Shown: positions 3,800-59,122 of the stretch, one piece after another
Numbering within the stretch: the stretch's first letter is position 1
Layout: each line of letters starts with the position of its first letter
Assembly (NCBI GenBank): GCA_964537735.1
Contig: CAZICL010000006.1
Location: forward strand, 989-64,988
Direction: 5' to 3'
Length of the DNA stretch: 64,000 bases
From: an uncultured Rhizobium sp.
GTDB taxonomy: Bacteria; Pseudomonadota; Alphaproteobacteria; Rickettsiales; UBA1997
Position numbers and translations under genes: made by a program
The notes under the pieces: generated by a model
What the model saw: only the letters and a program-made list of their open reading frames with translations
Databases searched by the model: none
What the model was told of the DNA's origin: nothing

Positions 3800-4807
3800 A
3801 TGTCTTTAAGCTACAAACCTTTAACCTACAAAGCAGCCGGCGTTGATATTGATGCCGGCAATGAACTGGTTAACCGCATTAAACCTTTTGCCAAAGCAAC
3901 CTCAAGACTTGGCGCCGATTCTGATTTGGGAGGGTTTGGTGCGCTTTTCGATTTAAAGAAATGTAATTTTAAAGATCCGGTTTTGGTTTCTTCAACTGAC
4001 GGTGTGGGCACAAAATTAAAAGTGGCCATCGATTCTAACAAGCATGACACCATCGGAGTTGATTTGGTCGCCATGTCAGTAAACGACCTTGTAGTTCAAG
4101 GCGCTGAACCCCTTTTCTTTTTAGATTATTTTGCCTGTTCCAAACTTGAAGTTGCAGTTGCAACTGACGTCATCAAAGGAATCGCCGATGGTTGTAAGCT
4201 TGCTGGCTGTGCTTTAATCGGCGGCGAAACAGCAGAAATGCCAGGAATGTACCAAGCCGGAGATTACGATTTAGCCGGATTTTCCGTTGGTGCTGTTGAA
4301 CGCGATGCAATTTTACCAAAAGCCACTAATACTGGCGATGTTTTAATCGGCCTTAAATCCAGCGGTTTGCACTCAAATGGCTATTCTTTAGCACGCTACA
4401 TACTTTCACAAAATAATGTCAAATTCTCCGATCAATATTCCGACGAAAAAACCGTTGCTGACTTACTTTTAGTTCCAACAAAAATTTACGTAAAATCTTG
4501 TTTAGCAGCGCTTAAAACTGGAAAAGTCAAAGCCTTATCTCACATCACTGGCGGTGGGCTTACTGAAAATCTGCCTCGGGTTTTGTCGAAAAATGTCACT
4601 CCCAAAATCGACTTTCAATCTTGGACGCGCCCCGAAGTTTTCAACTATTTACAAAAGCTAGGCAATATTGCTGACGAAGAAATGCATCGCACTTTCAACT
4701 GCGGAATCGGCATGGTTTTGGTTGTGGCCCAAGGTGACGAGCAAGAAGTGATCGAAACTTTACAAAAAAACGGTGAAGAAGTTTTTGTGATCGGCGAATT
4801 AATTTAG
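3800..4807 (+). CDS. purM: phosphoribosylformylglycinamidine cyclo-ligase (AIR synthase)
   Basis: 335-aa ORF with PurM motifs (SSTDGVGTKLK, IGGETAEMPGMY, HITGGGL). Confidence 0.95.
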   Translation: MSLSYKPLTYKAAGVDIDAGNELVNRIKPFAKATSRLGADSDLGGFGALFDLKKCNFKDPVLVSSTDGVGTKLKVAIDSNKHDTIGVDLVAMSVNDLVVQGAEPLFFLDYFACSKLEVAVATDVIKGIADGCKLAGCALIGGETAEMPGMYQAGDYDLAGFSVGAVERDAILPKATNTGDVLIGLKSSGLHSNGYSLARYILSQNNVKFSDQYSDEKTVADLLLVPTKIYVKSCLAALKTGKVKALSHITGGGLTENLPRVLSKNVTPKIDFQSWTRPEVFNYLQKLGNIADEEMHRTFNCGIGMVLVVAQGDEQEVIETLQKNGEEVFVIGELI

Positions 4808-6800: not shown

Positions 6801-6844
6801 GGATGACGGTGATTTAACGACCGCTTTCTAGCTGCACCACTCTT
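6801..6844. repeat. direct repeat copy 2; it encodes (antisense) the last 11 codons and stop of the 792-aa ORF
   Basis: Identical to 5682-5718. Read on the reverse strand it gives ...DERVVQLESGR-stop. Confidence 0.95.
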
Positions 6845-21271: not shown

Positions 21272-22081
21272 ATGGATTTTTTCGCAATTCTAAATTCACA
21301 ACTTTCTTCTTCAGCGCAAGTTTTTTTAGTAACAATTTTTGGCCTTATATTTGGCTCATTCGCCAGTCTTTTAAGCCATCGCTTGGTCAGCGGCGAATCA
21401 ATTATTTTCGCCAGATCACAATGTCCAAAATGCCACTACAAACTTCAAATCAAAAATTTAATACCGTTATTTTCCTGGTTGTTGCAACGCGGCAAATGCA
21501 GCAATTGTCACAGTAAAATCTCTGTGCGTTATCCCATAATTGAACTGAGCTTCGCTGTTGCCTTCGTAATTATTTATTTTGTTGGCGGCCAAAAAATTGA
21601 CTATCGTTTAATACTGCTATGCCTGATTTCCTTTGCGCTAATCATGATGTGCATCACCGATCTTGAGCATTATTTTATTCCCAATTCACTGCAATATTTG
21701 CTGACAATATTTGTCATCTTGCTGCGCATTAATGACGACGGAGTTTATGGTTCTCTCACCTATATTAAAGCGGCTTGTGCCTACGCCGGATTTGGTTTAG
21801 CCTTATTACTACTATTTTACGTCACCACCAAAACAGAGGCTATCGGCATTGATGATATTAAATTATTTTTCATCGCCGGACTGCTTTTAGGCATCAATAA
21901 TTTTCTGCTATTTATGATGATTAACGGCGTTATCGGTACAATTTTTGGGGCAATTTGGCAAAAAATAAAAAATGACGGCACCTTTCCTTTCGCACCTTCA
22001 ATCGCAATAGCCTTCTATATCGCTATGCTTTCCGGCGATAAGATTAATCTTGTTGAAACTTTAGGATCGCTAATTTTTTAA
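21272..22081 (+). CDS. pilD: A24-family prepilin peptidase
   Basis: 269 aa with the N-terminal Cys-rich box (CPKCHYKL...CSNCHSKISVRYPIIEL) and a polytopic body containing conserved Asp residues (ITDLEHYFIP, GIDDIKLF). Confidence 0.85.
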   Translation: MDFFAILNSQLSSSAQVFLVTIFGLIFGSFASLLSHRLVSGESIIFARSQCPKCHYKLQIKNLIPLFSWLLQRGKCSNCHSKISVRYPIIELSFAVAFVIIYFVGGQKIDYRLILLCLISFALIMMCITDLEHYFIPNSLQYLLTIFVILLRINDDGVYGSLTYIKAACAYAGFGLALLLLFYVTTKTEAIGIDDIKLFFIAGLLLGINNFLLFMMINGVIGTIFGAIWQKIKNDGTFPFAPSIAIAFYIAMLSGDKINLVETLGSLIF

Positions 22082-40394: not shown

Positions 40395-40607
40395 ATGACA
40401 ATGATAACCTCCTGTCAAGATCTGGGGATACTAGTCCAAAAAGCTAGAAAATCACAAAATTTTACTCAACGACAACTGGCTGCATTATGCGGAGTTGGGG
40501 AAAGATTCATCATCGATTTAGAAAAAGGCAAAGCCACTTGCGCTATCGATAAGGCACTTACAGTTGCAACGAGTCTCGGCATTAAAATAACCGCCAAATA
40601 TAAATGA
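40395..40607 (+). CDS. hipB: XRE-family HTH antitoxin (HipB-like)
   Basis: 70 aa with an HTH (FTQRQLAALCGVGERFIIDLEKGK). It overlaps hipA with ATGA. Confidence 0.8.
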   Translation: MTMITSCQDLGILVQKARKSQNFTQRQLAALCGVGERFIIDLEKGKATCAIDKALTVATSLGIKITAKYK

Positions 40608-41872
40608 CCACAAACAAACTTAACGTCTATTTGAATAAAGTTTTTGTCGGAACTTTTGAGCAATCTTTGCAAGGTGGCGCGCTATCATTTGTTTACGATT
40701 CCAACTATTTAAAATCCAAAAATCCGTTAGCGCTTTCAATCTCTCTAGCTCTGCGTTCTGAACCATTTAAGACCAACAATATCAAACCATTTTTTGCCGG
40801 TCTTTTGCCAGAAGGAGACCAGCTGGATTTGGTTGCTGATGCTTTTAAAGTCTCGACAAAAAATCCTTTTTCACTGCTGCGTGAAATTGGCCGCGACTGT
40901 GCTGGCAGTGTTGAAATCATACCCCATGGTGAAAAAGTTCTGACATATTCTCAGGGCAAAATTGAGAAATTAACTCAAGATCGTCTGCTGGAAATTCTGC
41001 GCAAAACTAACAACACTGCACAAGCTATAAAAAGTGGCAAGAACCGCTTTTCACTTGCTGGGGCACAACGCAAAATAGCCGTTTTTTTTGATGAAAGTAA
41101 AAATTCGCTACCAGCTTTGGTCAATGGCAAACCCAGCACTCACATTCTAAAACCGCTAATGCCGCGATATAAAACTTCGGTACATAATGAGTTTTTTTGC
41201 ATGAAATTGGCAAAAGAAATGAATCTTGAAGTTGCAGAAGTTTTTTTTAAACAACTCGATGAACAGCCTTATCTATTGATTCGACGCTATGATCGCACTA
41301 AATTGGGCAAAAATTTTATTCGCTTACATCAGGAAGATTTTTGTCAGGCTTTGGGATTGATGCCGGAACAAAAATATCAAGGAGTTGATGGCGGACCTGG
41401 AATTGACATTTGCAAAGATTTAATCTCCAAACACAGCGCCAGAGCCGTTCTTGACCGTTATCGTTTTTTACGAGCTACCATTTTTAACTATTTAATTGGC
41501 AATTCTGATGCTCATGGCAAGAATTTTTCTTTCCTCCACAAGGCTGGGAAGACAAGACTCGCACCTTTCTATGACCTCATTTCAACTTGTTGTTATGCCG
41601 AAATTGACCATCAAATAGCCATGAAAATTGGTAAGGTTAAAGACCCCAACCGCCTTTCTTTGAATAATTGGCACCAGATTGTTGCCAATACCAACACCGC
41701 CAGATCACACTTGGAAAAAGAACTACAAAGCTTTGCCTTAACTTTGCCTCAGGCCGCAAAATCACTGCAGGAAAAACTCCGCAGAAAAGGCATCGAATCA
41801 GAAATTTTTGACGAAATCCAAAATCTTATTCACAAAAGATCACAAAAAATTCTGGGATATTTTAAAAGCTAA
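40604..41872 (+). CDS. hipA: type II toxin-antitoxin Ser/Thr kinase toxin HipA
   Basis: 422 aa with an N-terminal HipA coupling domain (LNVYLNKVFVGTF), SLAGAQRK, and the catalytic loop GNSDAHGKNFSF. Confidence 0.85.
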   Translation: MTTNKLNVYLNKVFVGTFEQSLQGGALSFVYDSNYLKSKNPLALSISLALRSEPFKTNNIKPFFAGLLPEGDQLDLVADAFKVSTKNPFSLLREIGRDCAGSVEIIPHGEKVLTYSQGKIEKLTQDRLLEILRKTNNTAQAIKSGKNRFSLAGAQRKIAVFFDESKNSLPALVNGKPSTHILKPLMPRYKTSVHNEFFCMKLAKEMNLEVAEVFFKQLDEQPYLLIRRYDRTKLGKNFIRLHQEDFCQALGLMPEQKYQGVDGGPGIDICKDLISKHSARAVLDRYRFLRATIFNYLIGNSDAHGKNFSFLHKAGKTRLAPFYDLISTCCYAEIDHQIAMKIGKVKDPNRLSLNNWHQIVANTNTARSHLEKELQSFALTLPQAAKSLQEKLRRKGIESEIFDEIQNLIHKRSQKILGYFKS

Positions 41873-43845
41873 GAGATGGGATCAACATCAATTCGCACTC
41901 GCACCGACTTTGGAATTTCAAGACTTTGCAGCACATCGCGAATTAATTTCTGCACGTTGGTTTTTTTGGCCGCTTTCAAATTTACTAAAAAATGATGACG
42001 ATTTTTTAGCCGTTGAAGTGGCGCTGATGCCGGTCCGAAGATTTCAATTTTATCACTTAGCGGAAAATGCGAAATTAATTTTTTGGCAAAACTTTTTGCT
42101 TCCATTTCATTAAAAGAGCTGACTTCAAATTTAACCATGCGTGAGAAAGGCGGCAAATCAAGGCTTTGGCGGTTATTGATTTCAAAATCGTAAAAAGATT
42201 TTTTGTCATATTTTCTGATTTGCTCAAAAATAAAATTTTGTGGATTGTAAGTCTGAATCATGATTTTGCCGGCATCAGATCGTCTTCCGGCACGACCCAT
42301 CACTTGAGTTAAAATCTGATAAGTTTTCTCCAAAGCACGCAGCTCTGAAGAATAAAGCAAAGCATCAGCATCAATAATTCCAACCAAAGTGAGGTCAGGA
42401 AAATCATGACCTTTCACAATCATTTGGGTTCCAATTATGATGTCGATTTCACGATTTAAAATTTGCGCCACCACTTTATCCACATCATCAAATCCGCCAA
42501 TATTATCGCTGGTGATCAAAGCAATTCTGCCATCCGGAAAAAGATTTTTAACTTCTTCCAAAATCTTCTCCACTCCAACGCCAAGAGAAATCAAAGACTC
42601 TTTTTCATTACAAAATTTACAGCTTGTCTCCAGCTTTTCCTGATGTCCGCAGTGATGGCAAACTAACTTTTGTTTTGACTTATGTAACACCAAATGAAAA
42701 TCACAGTCCGCACATTGATATTTCTCACCACAACTCTTACACATCGTCACTGGCGCATATCCACGGCGATTTAGAAAAAGTAAACTTTGTTTGTTGGCAG
42801 CTAAATTTTGCGCCATTTCCACACGTAATTTTTGCGAAATAAATTGCTCTTTAGGCAATTTTTCACGACGCAGATCAATCATCTCCACATCATTTTTTTG
42901 ACCAAATCTTTGCTCTAAAATAAAATGACGATATTTGCCAGAAACAGCGTTGGCATAGCTTTCAAGAGCCGGAGTTGCTGAAGATAAAATAACCGGAAAA
43001 TTTTCAATATTAGCTTTGACAACCGCCATATCACGAGCATGAAAATTAAAAACATCTTCTTGTTTGAAGGATGAATCATGCTCTTCATCAAGCACAATTA
43101 GTTGCAGATTTCTGAAAGGCAGCAACAAAGCTGAACGAGCACCAATCAAGACTCTGACCGTCCCTTCAACCACGCCATAAAAAATTTCACGTTTGTCTTT
43201 CTTGGAAATTTTAGAGTGCCACAAAGCTGGTTTAAAACCGAACTGCTCTTCAAAACGCATCAATAATTGTGAGGTCAGAGCAATTTCAGGGAGCAGAATA
43301 AGAATTTGCGCTGTTTCTGCTTCAAAAGTTTGAGCCAGAATCTTAGCGATCAGTGCAAAATAAATTTCGGTTTTACCAGAACCAGTCACACCGTCGAGCA
43401 AAATAACTGAAGATTTCTCAACCATTAAGTGATCGAAAATTTCCTGCTGTTTTGGCAATAATTTTTTTAAGTTAAATTGCTCTGGCACAACTTTTTGCAC
43501 AAAACTTTGCGGAACTTTTTTAACCTTATCTGAATTTAATATTCCCAAAAATGCTCGCAATACCAAACCACGACTAGCAAGGTTATAGGCCGCCAAACTT
43601 TCAATAAATTTTAACTGATTTGTGGTAAATTTTAGGCGCGTATTTTTTTCTAGAACTTTTTTTATTTTTTCTGCCGCTAGATTTTGCGGAGCTTCTAAAC
43701 TAAGTGAAAAAACCACTCCCCAGATTTTTTGTCTGCCAAACTCAACAAGCACCACGTCACCTACGTCAATATGCTCTTCACTGTTGTAAGTAAAAAGTTC
43801 GTCAAGCGCTAGCGGCAATAGAAGCTGAGCAAAAATTTTTGACAT
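41869..43845 (-). CDS. priA: primosomal replication restart helicase PriA
   Basis: 658 aa with Walker A (DGVTGSGKTE), DEEH, the Cys-rich zinc insert (CKSCGEKYQCADCDF...CHHCGH...CKFC) and GRAGR. Confidence 0.95.
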   Translation of the reverse strand: MSKIFAQLLLPLALDELFTYNSEEHIDVGDVVLVEFGRQKIWGVVFSLSLEAPQNLAAEKIKKVLEKNTRLKFTTNQLKFIESLAAYNLASRGLVLRAFLGILNSDKVKKVPQSFVQKVVPEQFNLKKLLPKQQEIFDHLMVEKSSVILLDGVTGSGKTEIYFALIAKILAQTFEAETAQILILLPEIALTSQLLMRFEEQFGFKPALWHSKISKKDKREIFYGVVEGTVRVLIGARSALLLPFRNLQLIVLDEEHDSSFKQEDVFNFHARDMAVVKANIENFPVILSSATPALESYANAVSGKYRHFILEQRFGQKNDVEMIDLRREKLPKEQFISQKLRVEMAQNLAANKQSLLFLNRRGYAPVTMCKSCGEKYQCADCDFHLVLHKSKQKLVCHHCGHQEKLETSCKFCNEKESLISLGVGVEKILEEVKNLFPDGRIALITSDNIGGFDDVDKVVAQILNREIDIIIGTQMIVKGHDFPDLTLVGIIDADALLYSSELRALEKTYQILTQVMGRAGRRSDAGKIMIQTYNPQNFIFEQIRKYDKKSFYDFEINNRQSLDLPPFSRMVKFEVSSFNEMEAKSFAKKLISHFPLSDKIEIFGPASAPLQRLKNRHHFLVNLKAAKKTNVQKLIRDVLQSLEIPKSVRVRIDVDPIS

Positions 43846-48209: not shown

Positions 48210-49766
48210 ATGAGCCTTTTAAGAAAAATTTTACTTCCGGCACTATTACTGGCTTTACTTTCCTGTAACCAAAAGAAAGAAGATTCGGACAAAAATTCCA
48301 AAACAAAAAAATCTGAAGCTCAGAAAGAAGCTGATGGCACAGCAATTCCTAGTTTCTCGAAACTGATTATGGCACCACCGCCACCACAAATTGGTGGCGA
48401 TAAAATCATTTCTTTTTCCGTTACCGATCAAGTTCCGCTTAAAGACGTGTTGATTGAACTCGGGCGCGTAGCAAAGATTGATATCGACCTTGACAGCGGC
48501 ATCAACGGCGGTGTTGTAATTAACGCCCACAATCGTCCGCTTAAAGAAGTGATTGATCGCATTGCCACTGCCGGTAAATTGCGCTATTCTTACGAAAATG
48601 GTGTTCTGCATTTTGAACGTGACTTGCCTTACAACAAAAATTATTTCGTTGATTTTCTTGCCACCGGTCAACTTTGGTCTGATGTAGAAAGCAACATTTC
48701 AGCTATACTTTCGGACACTCACGGCAATACTAACGAATCGGCTTTGGATTCTTCCAGCAGTGGTCTTGCCCTCGCTCCTCCATCAAGATTCACTAGCAAT
48801 AAATCTGCCGGCATCATCTCGGTTTACGCCTCAAAGGCCCAACAAGAAAGTGTCTCTAAATATCTTGATGATGTTTACAAAAATTCTTCTGCTCAAGTTC
48901 TGATTGAAGCAAAAGTCGTTGAGGTAACTCTCACAAAACAATTCGACACCGGTATCAACTGGAGTTGGGTTGACGCTGGGAAATCATTTTCTACTACTGG
49001 ATCTTTTGCCTCTACTGGAGGCAGCACTACCCCAGCTTTTACTGCAACCGCTCCTAATGTTAAATTATTCGGCCTTGGTGGCACCTTAAGCGCTAGCATT
49101 AAAGCCTTGGAAGGCTTTGGTAAAGTTCACGCTCTTTCCAGCCCAAGAGTTAACGCCATAAATAATCAGAAAGCGCTATTAGATTTCACACAAAAGAAAA
49201 TTTATTTCACCGTTAGTTCGTCGTCTTCCACTTCTACAGGAACAGCAACTAACACTGTTGCTACTGTCACCGCCACTGAAAATTCAGTTGATGTGGGAAT
49301 TAAGCTGGAAATCACCCCGTCAATTAATAGAGCCACCAATGAAATTACACTGGATGTAAAACCAAAATTATCTCTTGATTCCGGTCAAGTTGCTGTCGAC
49401 CCTTCCGTTAACCCTTTAACCGGCGAATCTTTGGGCAACACAATTCCAATTATCAATTATCGCGAACTAGCAACTATCGCCAAAGTGCAAAGCGGCAATA
49501 TTCTTGTTATTGGTGGATTAATTGCCGAAGTCGGTTCGGAAGGCGGCAGTGGTATCCCAATTTTTATGCGCATCCCTGTCCTTAAATATCTTTTCGGCTA
49601 TTTCAGCAACTACTCTACCAAAGTTGAAACTGTGATCTTTATCAAAGCCACCATCATATCTAGCAGCAATTCTTTGGAAAAGCATGATCACACACTTTAC
49701 AATCGCGACAATCCAGATCGCAAAAAAACCAGGTGGGAAAAATATTTTGACTACAAAAACGATTAG
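48210..49766 (+). CDS. lipoprotein secretin (MshL/PilQ/GspD family)
   Basis: 518 aa with a lipobox (LALLSC), an N-terminal STN-like module (VPLKDVLIELGRVAKIDIDLD) and a secretin core (LSSPRVNAINNQKA, VQSGNILVIGGLI, GIPIFMRIPVLKYLFG). Confidence 0.85.
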   Translation: MSLLRKILLPALLLALLSCNQKKEDSDKNSKTKKSEAQKEADGTAIPSFSKLIMAPPPPQIGGDKIISFSVTDQVPLKDVLIELGRVAKIDIDLDSGINGGVVINAHNRPLKEVIDRIATAGKLRYSYENGVLHFERDLPYNKNYFVDFLATGQLWSDVESNISAILSDTHGNTNESALDSSSSGLALAPPSRFTSNKSAGIISVYASKAQQESVSKYLDDVYKNSSAQVLIEAKVVEVTLTKQFDTGINWSWVDAGKSFSTTGSFASTGGSTTPAFTATAPNVKLFGLGGTLSASIKALEGFGKVHALSSPRVNAINNQKALLDFTQKKIYFTVSSSSSTSTGTATNTVATVTATENSVDVGIKLEITPSINRATNEITLDVKPKLSLDSGQVAVDPSVNPLTGESLGNTIPIINYRELATIAKVQSGNILVIGGLIAEVGSEGGSGIPIFMRIPVLKYLFGYFSNYSTKVETVIFIKATIISSSNSLEKHDHTLYNRDNPDRKKTRWEKYFDYKND

Positions 49767-54745: not shown

Positions 54746-55768
54746 CTATTTATTCCGCACCAAATCTAAAACAAACTCAACATTTTCAATTGGAGTTTGT
54801 GGCACAATTCCGTGGCCCAAATTAAAGATAAAAGGTTTGTCACCAAACTTTTCTAAAATATCTAAAACTTCTTTTTCGATTTCTTTTTTAGAACCAAAAG
54901 CCAGCAATAAATTATCCAAGTTTCCTTGCACAATAGCATCACAATCTTGTTGTAAGTTCTTTCTCGCCCAATTTCTTTCAAGGCTTTGATCAAGTGCTAT
55001 TCCATCACAACCAACTTGCTTGGTAAATTCTAAATAATTCATACCAATTCCACGCGGAAAGCAAATTATTGGAGTTTGTGGATGAAGTTTTTTTAACTGT
55101 GAAACAATTTTTTTAGTCGGCTCAATCACCCATTTTTGCAATTCAAACGGCGGTAAAATTCCGGCCCAAGAATCAAATAATTTCACCACATCAGCTCCTG
55201 CTGAAATTTGCAGAGATAAATATTCGATTATGCTTTGAGTGATAATTTCAATTAATTGTGAAAAATATTGCGGATCTTTAAGAGCAGTTTGACGAGTTTT
55301 TTCAAAATTTTTCGATCCACCTTTCTCTATCATATAACAAGCTAACGTCCACGGAGCACCAGAAAATCCAATCAAAGCTGTATCGTCACCTAATTTTGAT
55401 TTTGTGAGTTCTAAAGCCTCAAAAACTGGATTTAAATGCGATTTAATATTATCTCTCCTGAGATTTTCTAATTCAAAATCCCCCAACTTCGGACCTTCAT
55501 TTTTAACAAATTCCACTTTAACACCAAGTGCATCTGGAATTACCAAAATATCTGAAAAAATAATTGCTGCATCAAAACCAAACCGACGAATTGGCTGAAG
55601 TGTTACTTCTGTAGCTAGTTTTGGGTTATAACAAAGATCTAAAAAATTATTAACTCCTGATCTGATTTCACGATATTCTGGAAGATATCTGCCTGCTTGT
55701 CTCATTACCCAAATTGGTGGGGAAGAATTTATCTCTTTTTTAAGAAGTGTATTAAGTAATTTATTCAT
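54746..55768 (-). CDS. hemE: uroporphyrinogen decarboxylase
   Basis: 340 aa with PPIWVMRQAGRYLPEYR and SDILVIPDALG. Confidence 0.95.
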   Translation of the reverse strand: MNKLLNTLLKKEINSSPPIWVMRQAGRYLPEYREIRSGVNNFLDLCYNPKLATEVTLQPIRRFGFDAAIIFSDILVIPDALGVKVEFVKNEGPKLGDFELENLRRDNIKSHLNPVFEALELTKSKLGDDTALIGFSGAPWTLACYMIEKGGSKNFEKTRQTALKDPQYFSQLIEIITQSIIEYLSLQISAGADVVKLFDSWAGILPPFELQKWVIEPTKKIVSQLKKLHPQTPIICFPRGIGMNYLEFTKQVGCDGIALDQSLERNWARKNLQQDCDAIVQGNLDNLLLAFGSKKEIEKEVLDILEKFGDKPFIFNLGHGIVPQTPIENVEFVLDLVRNK

Positions 55769-56028
55769 TTAGAAATTAGATAATTTTAATGGTGCTGTTA
55801 ATTTCTTAATTAAAAGTTTTTAACAATTTTATTAACAGTTTTGAAATTAGTTATCTTAGAAAATAAAGGATTTTAAGAGTTATTAACAGAAATAAATTAT
55901 TAAAAAAACTTTATTAACAGAAAGAAACTATGTTGAAAAAATGTTAAAATCTTTAATAAGTTTTTTTGAAAAATTAAATCCGTAAATAAGTCATAAGTTT
56001 TTAACAATTTATTAACAGTTTTTTTAAC
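55769..56028. other. candidate chromosomal replication origin (oriC) / CtrA- and DnaA-box-like repeat cluster
   Basis: This 260-bp hemE-bolA spacer is very AT-rich. TTATTAACA occurs at 55829, 55880, 55911 and 56009, with an inverted partial copy at 55795-55802. There are seven TTAAC pentamers and one exact TTAA-N7-TTAAC (56001-56016). A 29-nt block is repeated at both ends (55814-55842 versus 55995-56023). Confidence 0.5.
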
Positions 56029-56277
56029 ATGAAGCAAAGGATCGAAAAAATTTTGCAGGAAAATTTACGAACAGAATTTTTAGAGGTAAAAAATAATTCA
56101 CATCTTCACGCGGGACATGCTGGAGATAATGGTAGCGGTGAAACGCATTTTGCCGTAACTATTAATTCTGAAGAATTACGTGGAATTTCAAAAGTACAGG
56201 CGCACCGCAAAATAAATGCTCTTTTAAAAGAAGAGTTTGGGAATGGTTTGCACGCTTTAGAGATAAAAGTGGGATAA
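56029..56277 (+). CDS. BolA-family protein
   Basis: 82 aa with NNSHLHAGHAG...HF and the VQAHRKINALL pattern of the BolA family. Confidence 0.85.
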   Translation: MKQRIEKILQENLRTEFLEVKNNSHLHAGHAGDNGSGETHFAVTINSEELRGISKVQAHRKINALLKEEFGNGLHALEIKVG

Positions 56278-59045: not shown

Positions 59046-59122
59046 GGGATCATAGCTCAGTTGGTTAGAGCAGGATGCTCATAACGTCTTGGTCGTAGGT
59101 TCGAGTCCTACTGATCCCACCA
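59046..59122 (+). tRNA. tRNA with CAU anticodon (tRNA-Ile2/lysidine type favoured over elongator tRNA-Met)
   Basis: I folded the 77-nt cloverleaf by hand: acceptor GGGATCA/TGATCCC, D-stem GCTC/GAGC, anticodon loop CTCATAA, T-arm GTAGG-TTCGAGT-CCTAC, and an encoded CCA. The AGCAGG...TTGGTCG context resembles E. coli ileX more than metT. Confidence 0.85.

Follow-up and report, generated by a model that had tools for sequence, protein, structure and literature searches.

A probable hemE-linked replication origin with AT-shifted DnaA boxes in an uncultured alphaproteobacterial lineage

In Caulobacter, Rickettsia, Wolbachia, Anaplasma and Ehrlichia, replication origins flanked by hemE are known or have been predicted (PMC1914354). 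Like these, the region described here is intergenic and directly upstream of hemE, and it shares with them an AT-rich spacer of a few hundred bp, several DnaA boxes and a location away from dnaA. It is the 260-bp spacer between hemE and a bolA-family gene, at positions 55769-56028 of a 64-kb stretch of DNA (the window) from an uncultured alphaproteobacterium. A previous sequence-only reading of the window had put the spacer forward as a candidate oriC carrying DnaA boxes drifted towards AT as well as CtrA-type sites. Our analysis supports the candidate oriC through a switch in GC skew, a box cluster that is unique in the window, and conservation in about 37 related genomes. Four independent lines, namely the skew switch, recurrence in relatives, box clustering and duplex stability, lead us to regard the spacer plus ~20 bp at the start of hemE (~55750-56029) as very probably the chromosomal oriC.

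The hemE-bolA spacer and its skew switch

The window corresponds to positions 773-64,772 of the 102,784-bp ENA contig k127_697106 (groundwater metagenome ERZ909576, PRJNA292723), along which the sequence was read 9.7 kb further to the right, giving a total stretch of 73.7 kb. Two divergent genes bound the spacer:

54746-55768, minus strand: hemE (uroporphyrinogen decarboxylase), left boundary gene; TIGR01464, 386 bits, E=8.7e-116; an identical 340-aa gene is called in k127_697106
56029-56277, plus strand: bolA-family gene, right boundary gene; called with 82 aa and matching PF01722 (BolA); NF008638, E=1.6e-10

With 16.5% GC the spacer exceeds, as previously claimed, every other intergenic region of the window in AT content, the next one having 27.7% GC. 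The GC skew of the top strand is negative from position 1 to ~55 kb and positive from 56 kb, and the cumulative G-C curve has its minimum at 55,584, only 185 bp from the spacer; a minimum near ~55.9 kb had been suggested as a check, and within the available stretch this is what was obtained. To the left of the spacer, the skew at third codon positions (GC3 skew) is -0.34 for plus-strand genes (0% of them positive) and -0.19 for minus-strand genes (4% positive), whereas to the right it is positive for genes of either strand. Since the flip affects genes on both strands, the switch is not an artefact of gene orientation. Along the extended contig, the skew is positive in all 17 of the 1-kb windows on the right of the spacer and negative in 48 of the 55 on the left. 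Coding-strand bias, suggested as a further check, is one-sided: 17 of the 20 genes to the right lie on the plus strand, and the left side shows none (see below).

A scan of one genome per species recovered ~40 related metagenome-assembled genomes (MAGs) with hemE 60-84% identical, originating from lakes and groundwater and labelled variously as Rickettsiales, Alphaproteobacteria or Pelagibacterales. Of these, 37 have hemE beside bolA in divergent orientation, usually with clpX next, and bolA followed by clpX-clpP is conserved as the second boundary in about 36 relatives. The spacers of these 37 MAGs measure 214-472 bp and have 14-26% GC. Spacer statistics given below refer to 38 orthologous spacers, and box slots to a MAFFT alignment of 28 spacers of similar length; L-numbers (L001, L045 etc.) designate related loci, of which the set holds 80. 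Origin polarity, with skew below zero on the hemE side and above zero on the bolA side, was found in 23 of the 29 MAG loci that have more than 3 kb on both flanks, to which this count was restricted.

Box slots and their kinship with canonical DnaA boxes

The most conspicuous feature of the spacer is a 9-mer family around TTATTAACA, which differs from TTATCCACA at two positions, as had been noted, and from the relaxed consensus TTATNCACA at position 6 only. The four copies of TTATTAACA(G) reported earlier, at 55829, 55880, 55911 and 56009, are all on the plus strand; they are the sole copies in 64 kb and all fall within 0.4% of the window, while dinucleotide shuffling predicts 1.21 per window and none of 100 shuffles reached four. 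Over the 38 orthologous spacers the density of TTATTAACA is 13.3 per kb versus 0.028 per kb in 472 kb of flanks, a ~475-fold difference, the latter value being roughly the chance level. Searching with TTWTYMACA gave the same picture: the spacer contains eight such boxes plus three degenerate ones within 234 bp, a single 300-bp bin of the window holds eight and all other bins at most two, and in every locus of the clade the densest 300-bp cluster lies directly upstream of hemE. A scan with the classical TTWTNCACA, on the other hand, gave 0 matches in the spacer of this genome and 16 scattered ones in the window versus ~12 expected, and 10 of the 28 genomes, including the present one, have no TTWTNCACA-type box in any slot.

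The remaining repeats that had been described are also present. The inverted partial copy at 55795-55802, CTGTTAAT, belongs to a minus-strand box, B1, reading AAATTAACA; the ~29-nt block found at both ends of the spacer with a 1-nt indel consists of the tandem pairs B2-B3 (12-bp period) and B9-B10 (11-bp period); and the TTAAC pentamers number seven on the top strand (55820, 55832, 55883, 55914, 56001, 56012 and 56024), as claimed, with two more on the bottom strand. From the 28-spacer alignment, eleven box slots were defined:

55796-55804, minus strand: box B1, AAATTAACA (top strand TGTTAATTT); the box nearest to the candidate DNA-unwinding element (DUE)
55817-55825, plus strand: box B2, TTTTTAACA; in tandem with B3, 12-bp period
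55829-55837, plus strand: box B3, TTATTAACA(G); TTATTAACA in 24 of 28 aligned spacers
55880-55888, plus strand: box B4, TTATTAACA(G); solitary; TA at positions 5-6 in 27 of 28 spacers
55911-55919, plus strand: box B5, TTATTAACA(G); solitary
55931-55939, minus strand: box B6, TTTTCAACA; in tandem with B7, 11-bp period
55942-55950, minus strand: box B7, ATTTTAACA
55981-55989, minus strand: box B8, TTATTTACG; solitary, degenerate in the present genome
55998-56006, plus strand: box B9, TTTTTAACA; start of the B9-B10-B11 tandem array; TT.T..ACA kept in 27 of 28
56009-56017, plus strand: box B10, TTATTAACA(G); TT.T..ACA kept in 28 of 28
56021-56029, plus strand: box B11, TTTTTAACA; ends on the A of the bolA ATG

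What these boxes are becomes apparent when the slots are followed through the relatives. A7 never varies across the 279 aligned boxes and C8 hardly does, conservation is strong at positions 1, 2, 4 and 9, and information is lowest at positions 3 (A/T), 5 (T>C) and 6 (A>C), positions 5-6 toggling between TA, TC, CA and CC across aligned slots; save for position 6, this is the profile of the classical DnaA box TT(A/T)TNCACA. Positions 5-6 of B1 read TC in 14 spacers, TA in nine, CC in four and CA in one, and the slot is an exact TTATCCACA in L002. B2 retains TT.T..ACA in 26 of 27 relatives, being TTTTCCACA in L009 and TTATCCACA in L027, and in the deeper-branching L036 and L039 the B2-B3 tandem reads TTATTCACA-ATT-TTATTCACAG, with spacing and linker unchanged. 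B6 is mostly canonical in relatives (TTATCCACA five times, TTTTCCACA four times and TTCTCCACA three times), and the commonest sequence of the B7 slot is TTTTCCACA (7/28). The B5 slot varies between TTTTTAACA, TTTTCAACA, TTATCAACA and TTTTACACA, B8 is TTATTCAC(C/A) or, in L007 and L009, TTATCCAC(T/G), positions 5-6 of B10 are TA in 23 spacers, CA in four and AA in one, and the B11 position holds TTTTTAACA or TTATTAACA in 16 of the 28. Outside the clade, the Rickettsiaceae outgroup L045 (hemE 49% identical, 34% GC) has a hemE-adjacent spacer with four copies of TTATCCACA in addition to TTTTCCACA and TTATTCACA. Canonical boxes in homologous slots, together with this outgroup cluster, indicate that the boxes of the spacer are DnaA boxes, and we consider it likely that the TTATTAACA family as a whole represents DnaA boxes, as predicted from these comparisons.

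The proposal that the boxes had drifted towards AT is thereby upheld as to their ancestry, TTATCCACA, TTTTCCACA and TTATTCACA all occurring in homologous slots of relatives. The boxes would descend from the canonical TTATCCACA by C-to-T changes at position 5 and C-to-A changes at position 6, in a presumed series leading from TTATCCACA via TTATTCACA or TTATCAACA to TTATTAACA, and no box in the present genome retains the classical C at position 6. As an explanation, however, drift alone is insufficient. L045 is itself AT-rich and keeps canonical boxes, the plus-strand boxes B3, B4, B9 and B10 remain TTATTAACA even in relatives with 43-44% GC, and the correlation between genomic GC and the number of C's at positions 5-6 is weak (rho=0.40, p=0.036, uncorrected for phylogeny). 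The maintenance of TTATTAACA at these four slots in the GC-richer relatives hints at selection beyond mutational drift. One could go further and suppose that the DnaA of this lineage has been re-tuned at box positions 5-6, so that TTATTAACA would be the optimal site rather than a tolerated weak one, an idea that we put forward only tentatively and hold to be less probable than its opposite. If true, the origins of 10 of the 28 sampled genomes would operate without one classical TTWTNCACA box, and the series from the TTATCCACA of the outgroup via TTATTCACA/TTATCAACA to TTATTAACA would record co-evolution of initiator and box.

Some individual loci of the set deserve mention. The L045 region (4060-4420 of MAG contig JAGOJE010000022) has the appearance of a textbook hemE-adjacent origin; its partner gene is not bolA, and the N-terminus of the partner is P-loop-kinase-like (GITGNIASGKS). 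The deep-branching L038 (2022-2330 of JBLHTM010000010), L040 and L063 are the most extreme shifted-box form, with 9-13 boxes, nearly all of them exact TTATTAACA and in both orientations, in a spacer of ~300 bp; in L038 a four-box head-to-tail array with an 11-12 bp period ends at the bolA start. In L032 (MEMO01000016, RIFCSPLOWO2_01_FULL_40_26) bolA no longer adjoins hemE; in the region ~230-520 bp upstream of hemE, CCCCTCAC repeats and a GC-rich palindrome (CCCTCTCCC...GGGAGAGGG) come after a box cluster composed mostly of TTTTCAACA/TTATCAACA, resembling an inserted repetitive extragenic palindrome (REP)-like or mobile element at the origin edge.

Unwinding element, possible mechanism and alternative readings

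Besides the boxes, four elements of the region could be delimited:

55750-55790, no strand assigned: candidate DUE; straddles the hemE start codon and abuts B1; putative function
55852-55872, no strand assigned: conserved non-box element between B3 and B4; consensus ATCCTTGAAAATAAAGGAT, here ATCTTAGAAAATAAAGGAT, degraded; conserved columns in the 28-spacer alignment
55889-55910, no strand assigned: AT tract between B4 and B5; secondary low-stability region, AT-rich, sequence not conserved in relatives
55954-55965, plus strand: conserved TAATAAGTTTTT element between B7 and B8; clade consensus TRATAAGTTTTT; nearly invariant columns in the 28-spacer alignment

No 41-bp duplex in the 64-kb window is less stable than the segment 55750-55790, which has a nearest-neighbour free energy (dG) of -38.3 versus a window mean of -52.2, and in 30 of 38 loci the least stable 41-mer lies at the equivalent position, ~19 nt inside hemE. 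The 41-mer at 55877-55917, covering the AT tract, ranks fourth in the window. In the basal unwinding system, a DnaA box is followed within 16 bp by at least three NAN/GAT trios, beside AT-rich DNA (PMC8287927). Here B1 is followed by GC and then by an AT-rich run with a conserved TTATTAG; at 84% AT such a run holds NAN trios trivially, and we attach no weight to them.

From these features we infer DnaA binding, a site of unwinding and initiation itself, along the following lines. DnaA would bind the eleven boxes, each 9 bp long and sharing the profile TT(A/T)T-[T>C]-[A>C]-ACA, laid out as the DUE-proximal B1, the tandem groups B2-B3, B6-B7 and B9-B10-B11 (11-12 bp, about one helical turn) and the solitary B4, B5 and B8. 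Cooperative DnaA oligomers may be nucleated at the three same-orientation tandem groups. B1 (top strand TGTTAATTT/TGTGAATTA), which a conserved G/C dinucleotide parts from a conserved TTTTATTAG run, may act like R1 of Escherichia coli beside the DUE, the oligomer then opening the unstable duplex at 55750-55790. Forks would depart both ways and leave the G>C excess on each leading strand. The general attributes of an oriC are present: several boxes lie within one mismatch of TTATNCACA (TTATTAACA has its one mismatch at position 6), which is the usual envelope of DnaA boxes according to a recent review (PMC10797057), an AT-rich unstable element stands beside the box cluster, and the skew switch has the polarity of an origin.

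Several observations weigh against this interpretation. No dnaA was found within -55/+18 kb of the spacer; Pfam/NCBIfam annotation revealed no dnaA, dnaN, ctrA or parAB in the window, nor in the 9.7-kb extension, and tblastn of the window and the 80 loci with E. coli DnaA and Caulobacter CtrA as queries gave only a weak response-regulator match in L034 (29% identity, CtrA query). The skew covers a 73.7-kb stretch, 18 kb of it to the right of the spacer, and its minimum is that of this stretch rather than of a closed chromosome; clean polarity is missing in 6 of the 29 relatives, and the left side has no coding-strand bias (25 genes on the minus and 24 on the plus strand). The stringent consensus of E. 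coli DnaA, TTATNCACA, includes the C at box position 6 (PMC10797057), so that a box set without C6 would need an altered DnaA or low-affinity cooperative binding. Finally, the persistence of TTATTAACA in the plus-strand slots B3, B4, B9 and B10, even in the GC-richest relatives, fits DnaA but would fit a second, TTAACA-requiring protein too.

Could the spacer then be something other than an origin? It might be an operator array for a local factor, or a datA-like cluster titrating DnaA or forming a DnaA-regulated promoter, next to which the skew switch would fall by coincidence, for instance at a rearrangement breakpoint. Clusters of DnaA boxes outside the origin do exist in E. coli (datA, DARS), both divergent promoters, of hemE and of bolA, must be placed within the 260-bp spacer, and with B11 overlapping the bolA start codon and B1 lying 27 bp from that of hemE, a bound protein would affect transcription. 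Nevertheless, the switch has origin polarity, falls within 200 bp, is seen with genes of both strands and recurs in 23 of 29 relatives, and a set of eleven sites that face both ways, beside a conserved flank of minimal stability, looks like an origin rather than an operator. Adjacency to hemE is moreover a known state of origins in related orders (PMC1914354), and L045 has its canonical cluster at hemE. We therefore hold a non-origin function of the spacer to be very improbable. With the spacer taken as oriC, the position of B11 and the two promoters suggest that DnaA occupancy probably modulates transcription of hemE and bolA too.

The CtrA-type sites raise a different question. The sequence-only reading had pointed to one exact TTAA-N7-TTAAC at 56001-56016 and to a near-site with N8 spacing at 55820-55836, and both exist as sequence, but as a functional feature they found no support. 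TTAA-N7-TTAAC occurs twice in the window versus 1.52 times expected, with 43 of 100 shuffles reaching two, and the single occurrence in the spacer has P=0.21 by mononucleotide shuffle of the spacer. The match at 56001-56016 arises because B9 and B10 are 9-mers 2 bp apart, with an 11-bp period. B6-B7 likewise have an 11-bp period, yet in many relatives read TTTTCCACA-NN-TTNTCCACA, without TTAA, which implies that the period belongs to DnaA-type boxes. The CtrA-type site in the spacer is a by-product of two tandem boxes, and the CtrA claim is not supported. The Caulobacter-type companions are lacking as well: neither GANTC, GATC nor the IHF consensus (WATCAANNNNTTR / WATCAN5WTR) occurs in the spacer of the window, and among the 38 spacers the IHF consensus is present in five and GANTC in six. 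The search for ctrA, which covered the 73.7 kb read and the 80 related loci, found none. The window does harbour a homologue of trcR (31988-32590, plus strand; PF06242, E=2.8e-52), an alphaproteobacterial cell-cycle regulator that CtrA is described as targeting in Caulobacter and Orientia; its upstream region has no TTAA-N7-TTAA, and the 73.7 kb contain only six such sites.

A more elaborate possibility is an origin under dual control, in which the conserved top-strand TTATTAACAG boxes (B3, B4, B9 and B10) would be bound also, or instead, by a TTAAC-recognising protein, CtrA or another, that shuts DnaA out for as long as it is present. CtrA sites and DnaA boxes overlap in Caulobacter, where CtrA is degraded by the product of clpX and clpP (PMC1914354), the very genes that adjoin bolA here. 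Furthermore, TTAA-N7-TTAAC is present in 27 of the 38 orthologous spacers, TA is retained at positions 5-6 of the top-strand slots in 23-27 of the 28 genomes, even at 43-44% GC, while the bottom-strand slots vary, and the presence of trcR may be taken as a weak hint. However, the full site is at chance frequency and completely accounted for by two 9-mers 2 bp apart, the spacing conserved in B2-B3 is N8 and not N7, and B4 and B5 are without a partner half-site, B4 having no TTAA at N7 in the clade consensus either. What is conserved is the whole 9-10-mer including the TTAT prefix, which CtrA does not need, and TTAA is lost through changes at positions 5-6, the flanks remaining fixed, as in the TTAA-less B2-B3 of L036/L039 and in B10, which is TTATCAACA in several relatives. 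Given in addition the lack of GANTC in the spacer and of a site upstream of trcR, dual control appears improbable to us, if less so than a spacer that is no origin at all.

The two conserved non-box elements are possibly promoter elements or sites for accessory proteins. The CCTTGAAAATAAAGG element between B3 and B4 is partly palindromic and conserved at the same position in L001-L040. An RNA or single-stranded DNA hairpin at its palindrome ATCCTT-N7-AAGGAT was considered and rejected: the variants AGCCTT/AAGGCT and ACACT/AGTGT seem compensatory by eye, but there is no gain over a column-shuffle control, 107 of 168 cells being Watson-Crick versus a shuffled mean of 104.6, with 537 of 2000 shuffles at or above the observed value. 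The minus strand of the TRATAAGTTTTT element reads TTATTAAAG, which is box-like without C8; the element could be the -10 element of bolA or an accessory site, although no significant promoter match was found for TAATAAGTTTTT. Scanning the spacer for sigma-70 promoters and terminators gave three matches versus 2.7 expected, and Rfam gave none there, its sole match in the window being a tRNA at 59046-59119.

Elsewhere in the window, a full-length HipA-type toxin kinase (Couple_hipA + HipA_C; 40604-41872, plus strand) has a 346-bp gap upstream and is convergent with priA (41869-43845, minus strand), overlapping it by 4 bp. A 792-aa open reading frame at 6814-9192 (minus strand) matches only peptidyl-tRNA hydrolase, over a short N-terminal part (residues 5-68), and Peptidase_C26, over residues 544-708; it may be a fused or mis-delimited reading frame, or else a multidomain protein of an unusual kind. 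At 21272-22081 and 48210-49766 lie type IV pilus/secretion genes (prepilin peptidase and MshL/PilQ-type secretin); together with biosynthetic genes such as nadC, bioB, hisH and a trpE-like gene, they suggest that this lineage, to which the label Rickettsiales is often given, has a free-living or facultative lifestyle.

Implications and comparison with known origins

The locus would provide an origin anchor for a widespread and abundant uncultured freshwater and groundwater lineage of Alphaproteobacteria, known only from MAGs, and would serve contig ordering, skew-based assembly checks and peak-to-trough estimates of growth rate in lake metagenomes. It also calls for caution with automated origin finders, since a classical TTWTNCACA scan finds nothing in the spacer, and with in-silico CtrA calls in AT-rich alphaproteobacterial origins, where a 'CtrA site' can arise from tandem AT-shifted DnaA boxes. 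The slot-by-slot series from canonical boxes to TTATTAACA offers natural data on how DnaA boxes change under a constant origin architecture. Specialists would have expected an origin at this location; the uniform box shift and the clean series are a small but real curiosity.

Compared with the other hemE-linked origins, the partner gene is bolA (followed by clpX-clpP) rather than COG1806/DUF299 as in Caulobacter and Rickettsia or a CBS-domain gene as in Wolbachia, and there are 11 boxes instead of 2-5 (PMC1914354). Unlike in those origins, the boxes are uniformly of the TTATTAACA type, none in the present genome fitting TTATNCACA; the outgroup L045 displays the canonical version of the arrangement. 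With the Caulobacter Cori the spacer shares the hemE boundary; the second boundary gene differs, and where Cori has five TTAA-N7-TTAA(C) CtrA sites the spacer has a single one, a number not above chance, and lacks both GANTC and the IHF consensus. By the tests run, it is not a Caulobacter-type, CtrA-controlled Cori.

In its layout the spacer also recalls oriC of E. coli, which similarly has ~250 bp, about a dozen DnaA sites in both orientations, and same-orientation tandem sites 2-3 bp apart, i.e. one helical turn. Closely spaced low-affinity arrays reportedly nucleate cooperative oligomers there, a finding attributed to Rozgaja et al. 2011. In both, an unstable DUE, here a candidate one, is found at one edge beside a box whose top strand reads TGTGG/TGTTA. 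There is also a likeness between the clade consensus TTTTATTAG(T/G)GC-TGTGAATTA and the E. coli R-13-mer/R1 junction, ...TTATTAG...TGTGGATAA. The TTATT within it is a single-stranded DNA motif of DnaA (PMC10797057). Unlike in E. coli, GATC and the IHF and Fis consensus are absent, the gene neighbourhood is different, the present genome has no high-affinity consensus box, and the candidate DUE overlaps a coding start.

The closest precedent for the box itself comes from the Mollicutes: upstream of dnaA, Mycoplasma hominis, M. mobile and M. arthritidis have TTATTAACA as a proposed DnaA box. It is the identical 9-mer, interpreted there, the genome being AT-rich, as a 7/9 match to TTATCCACA (PMC2751442). 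The Mycoplasma case comprises one or two boxes beside dnaA and has no comparative series leading back to canonical boxes, and the AT drift in Mycoplasma and in the present lineage is independent, that is, convergent. We assign the hemE-bolA spacer, with its uniformly AT-shifted box, to the known class of hemE-linked alphaproteobacterial origins.

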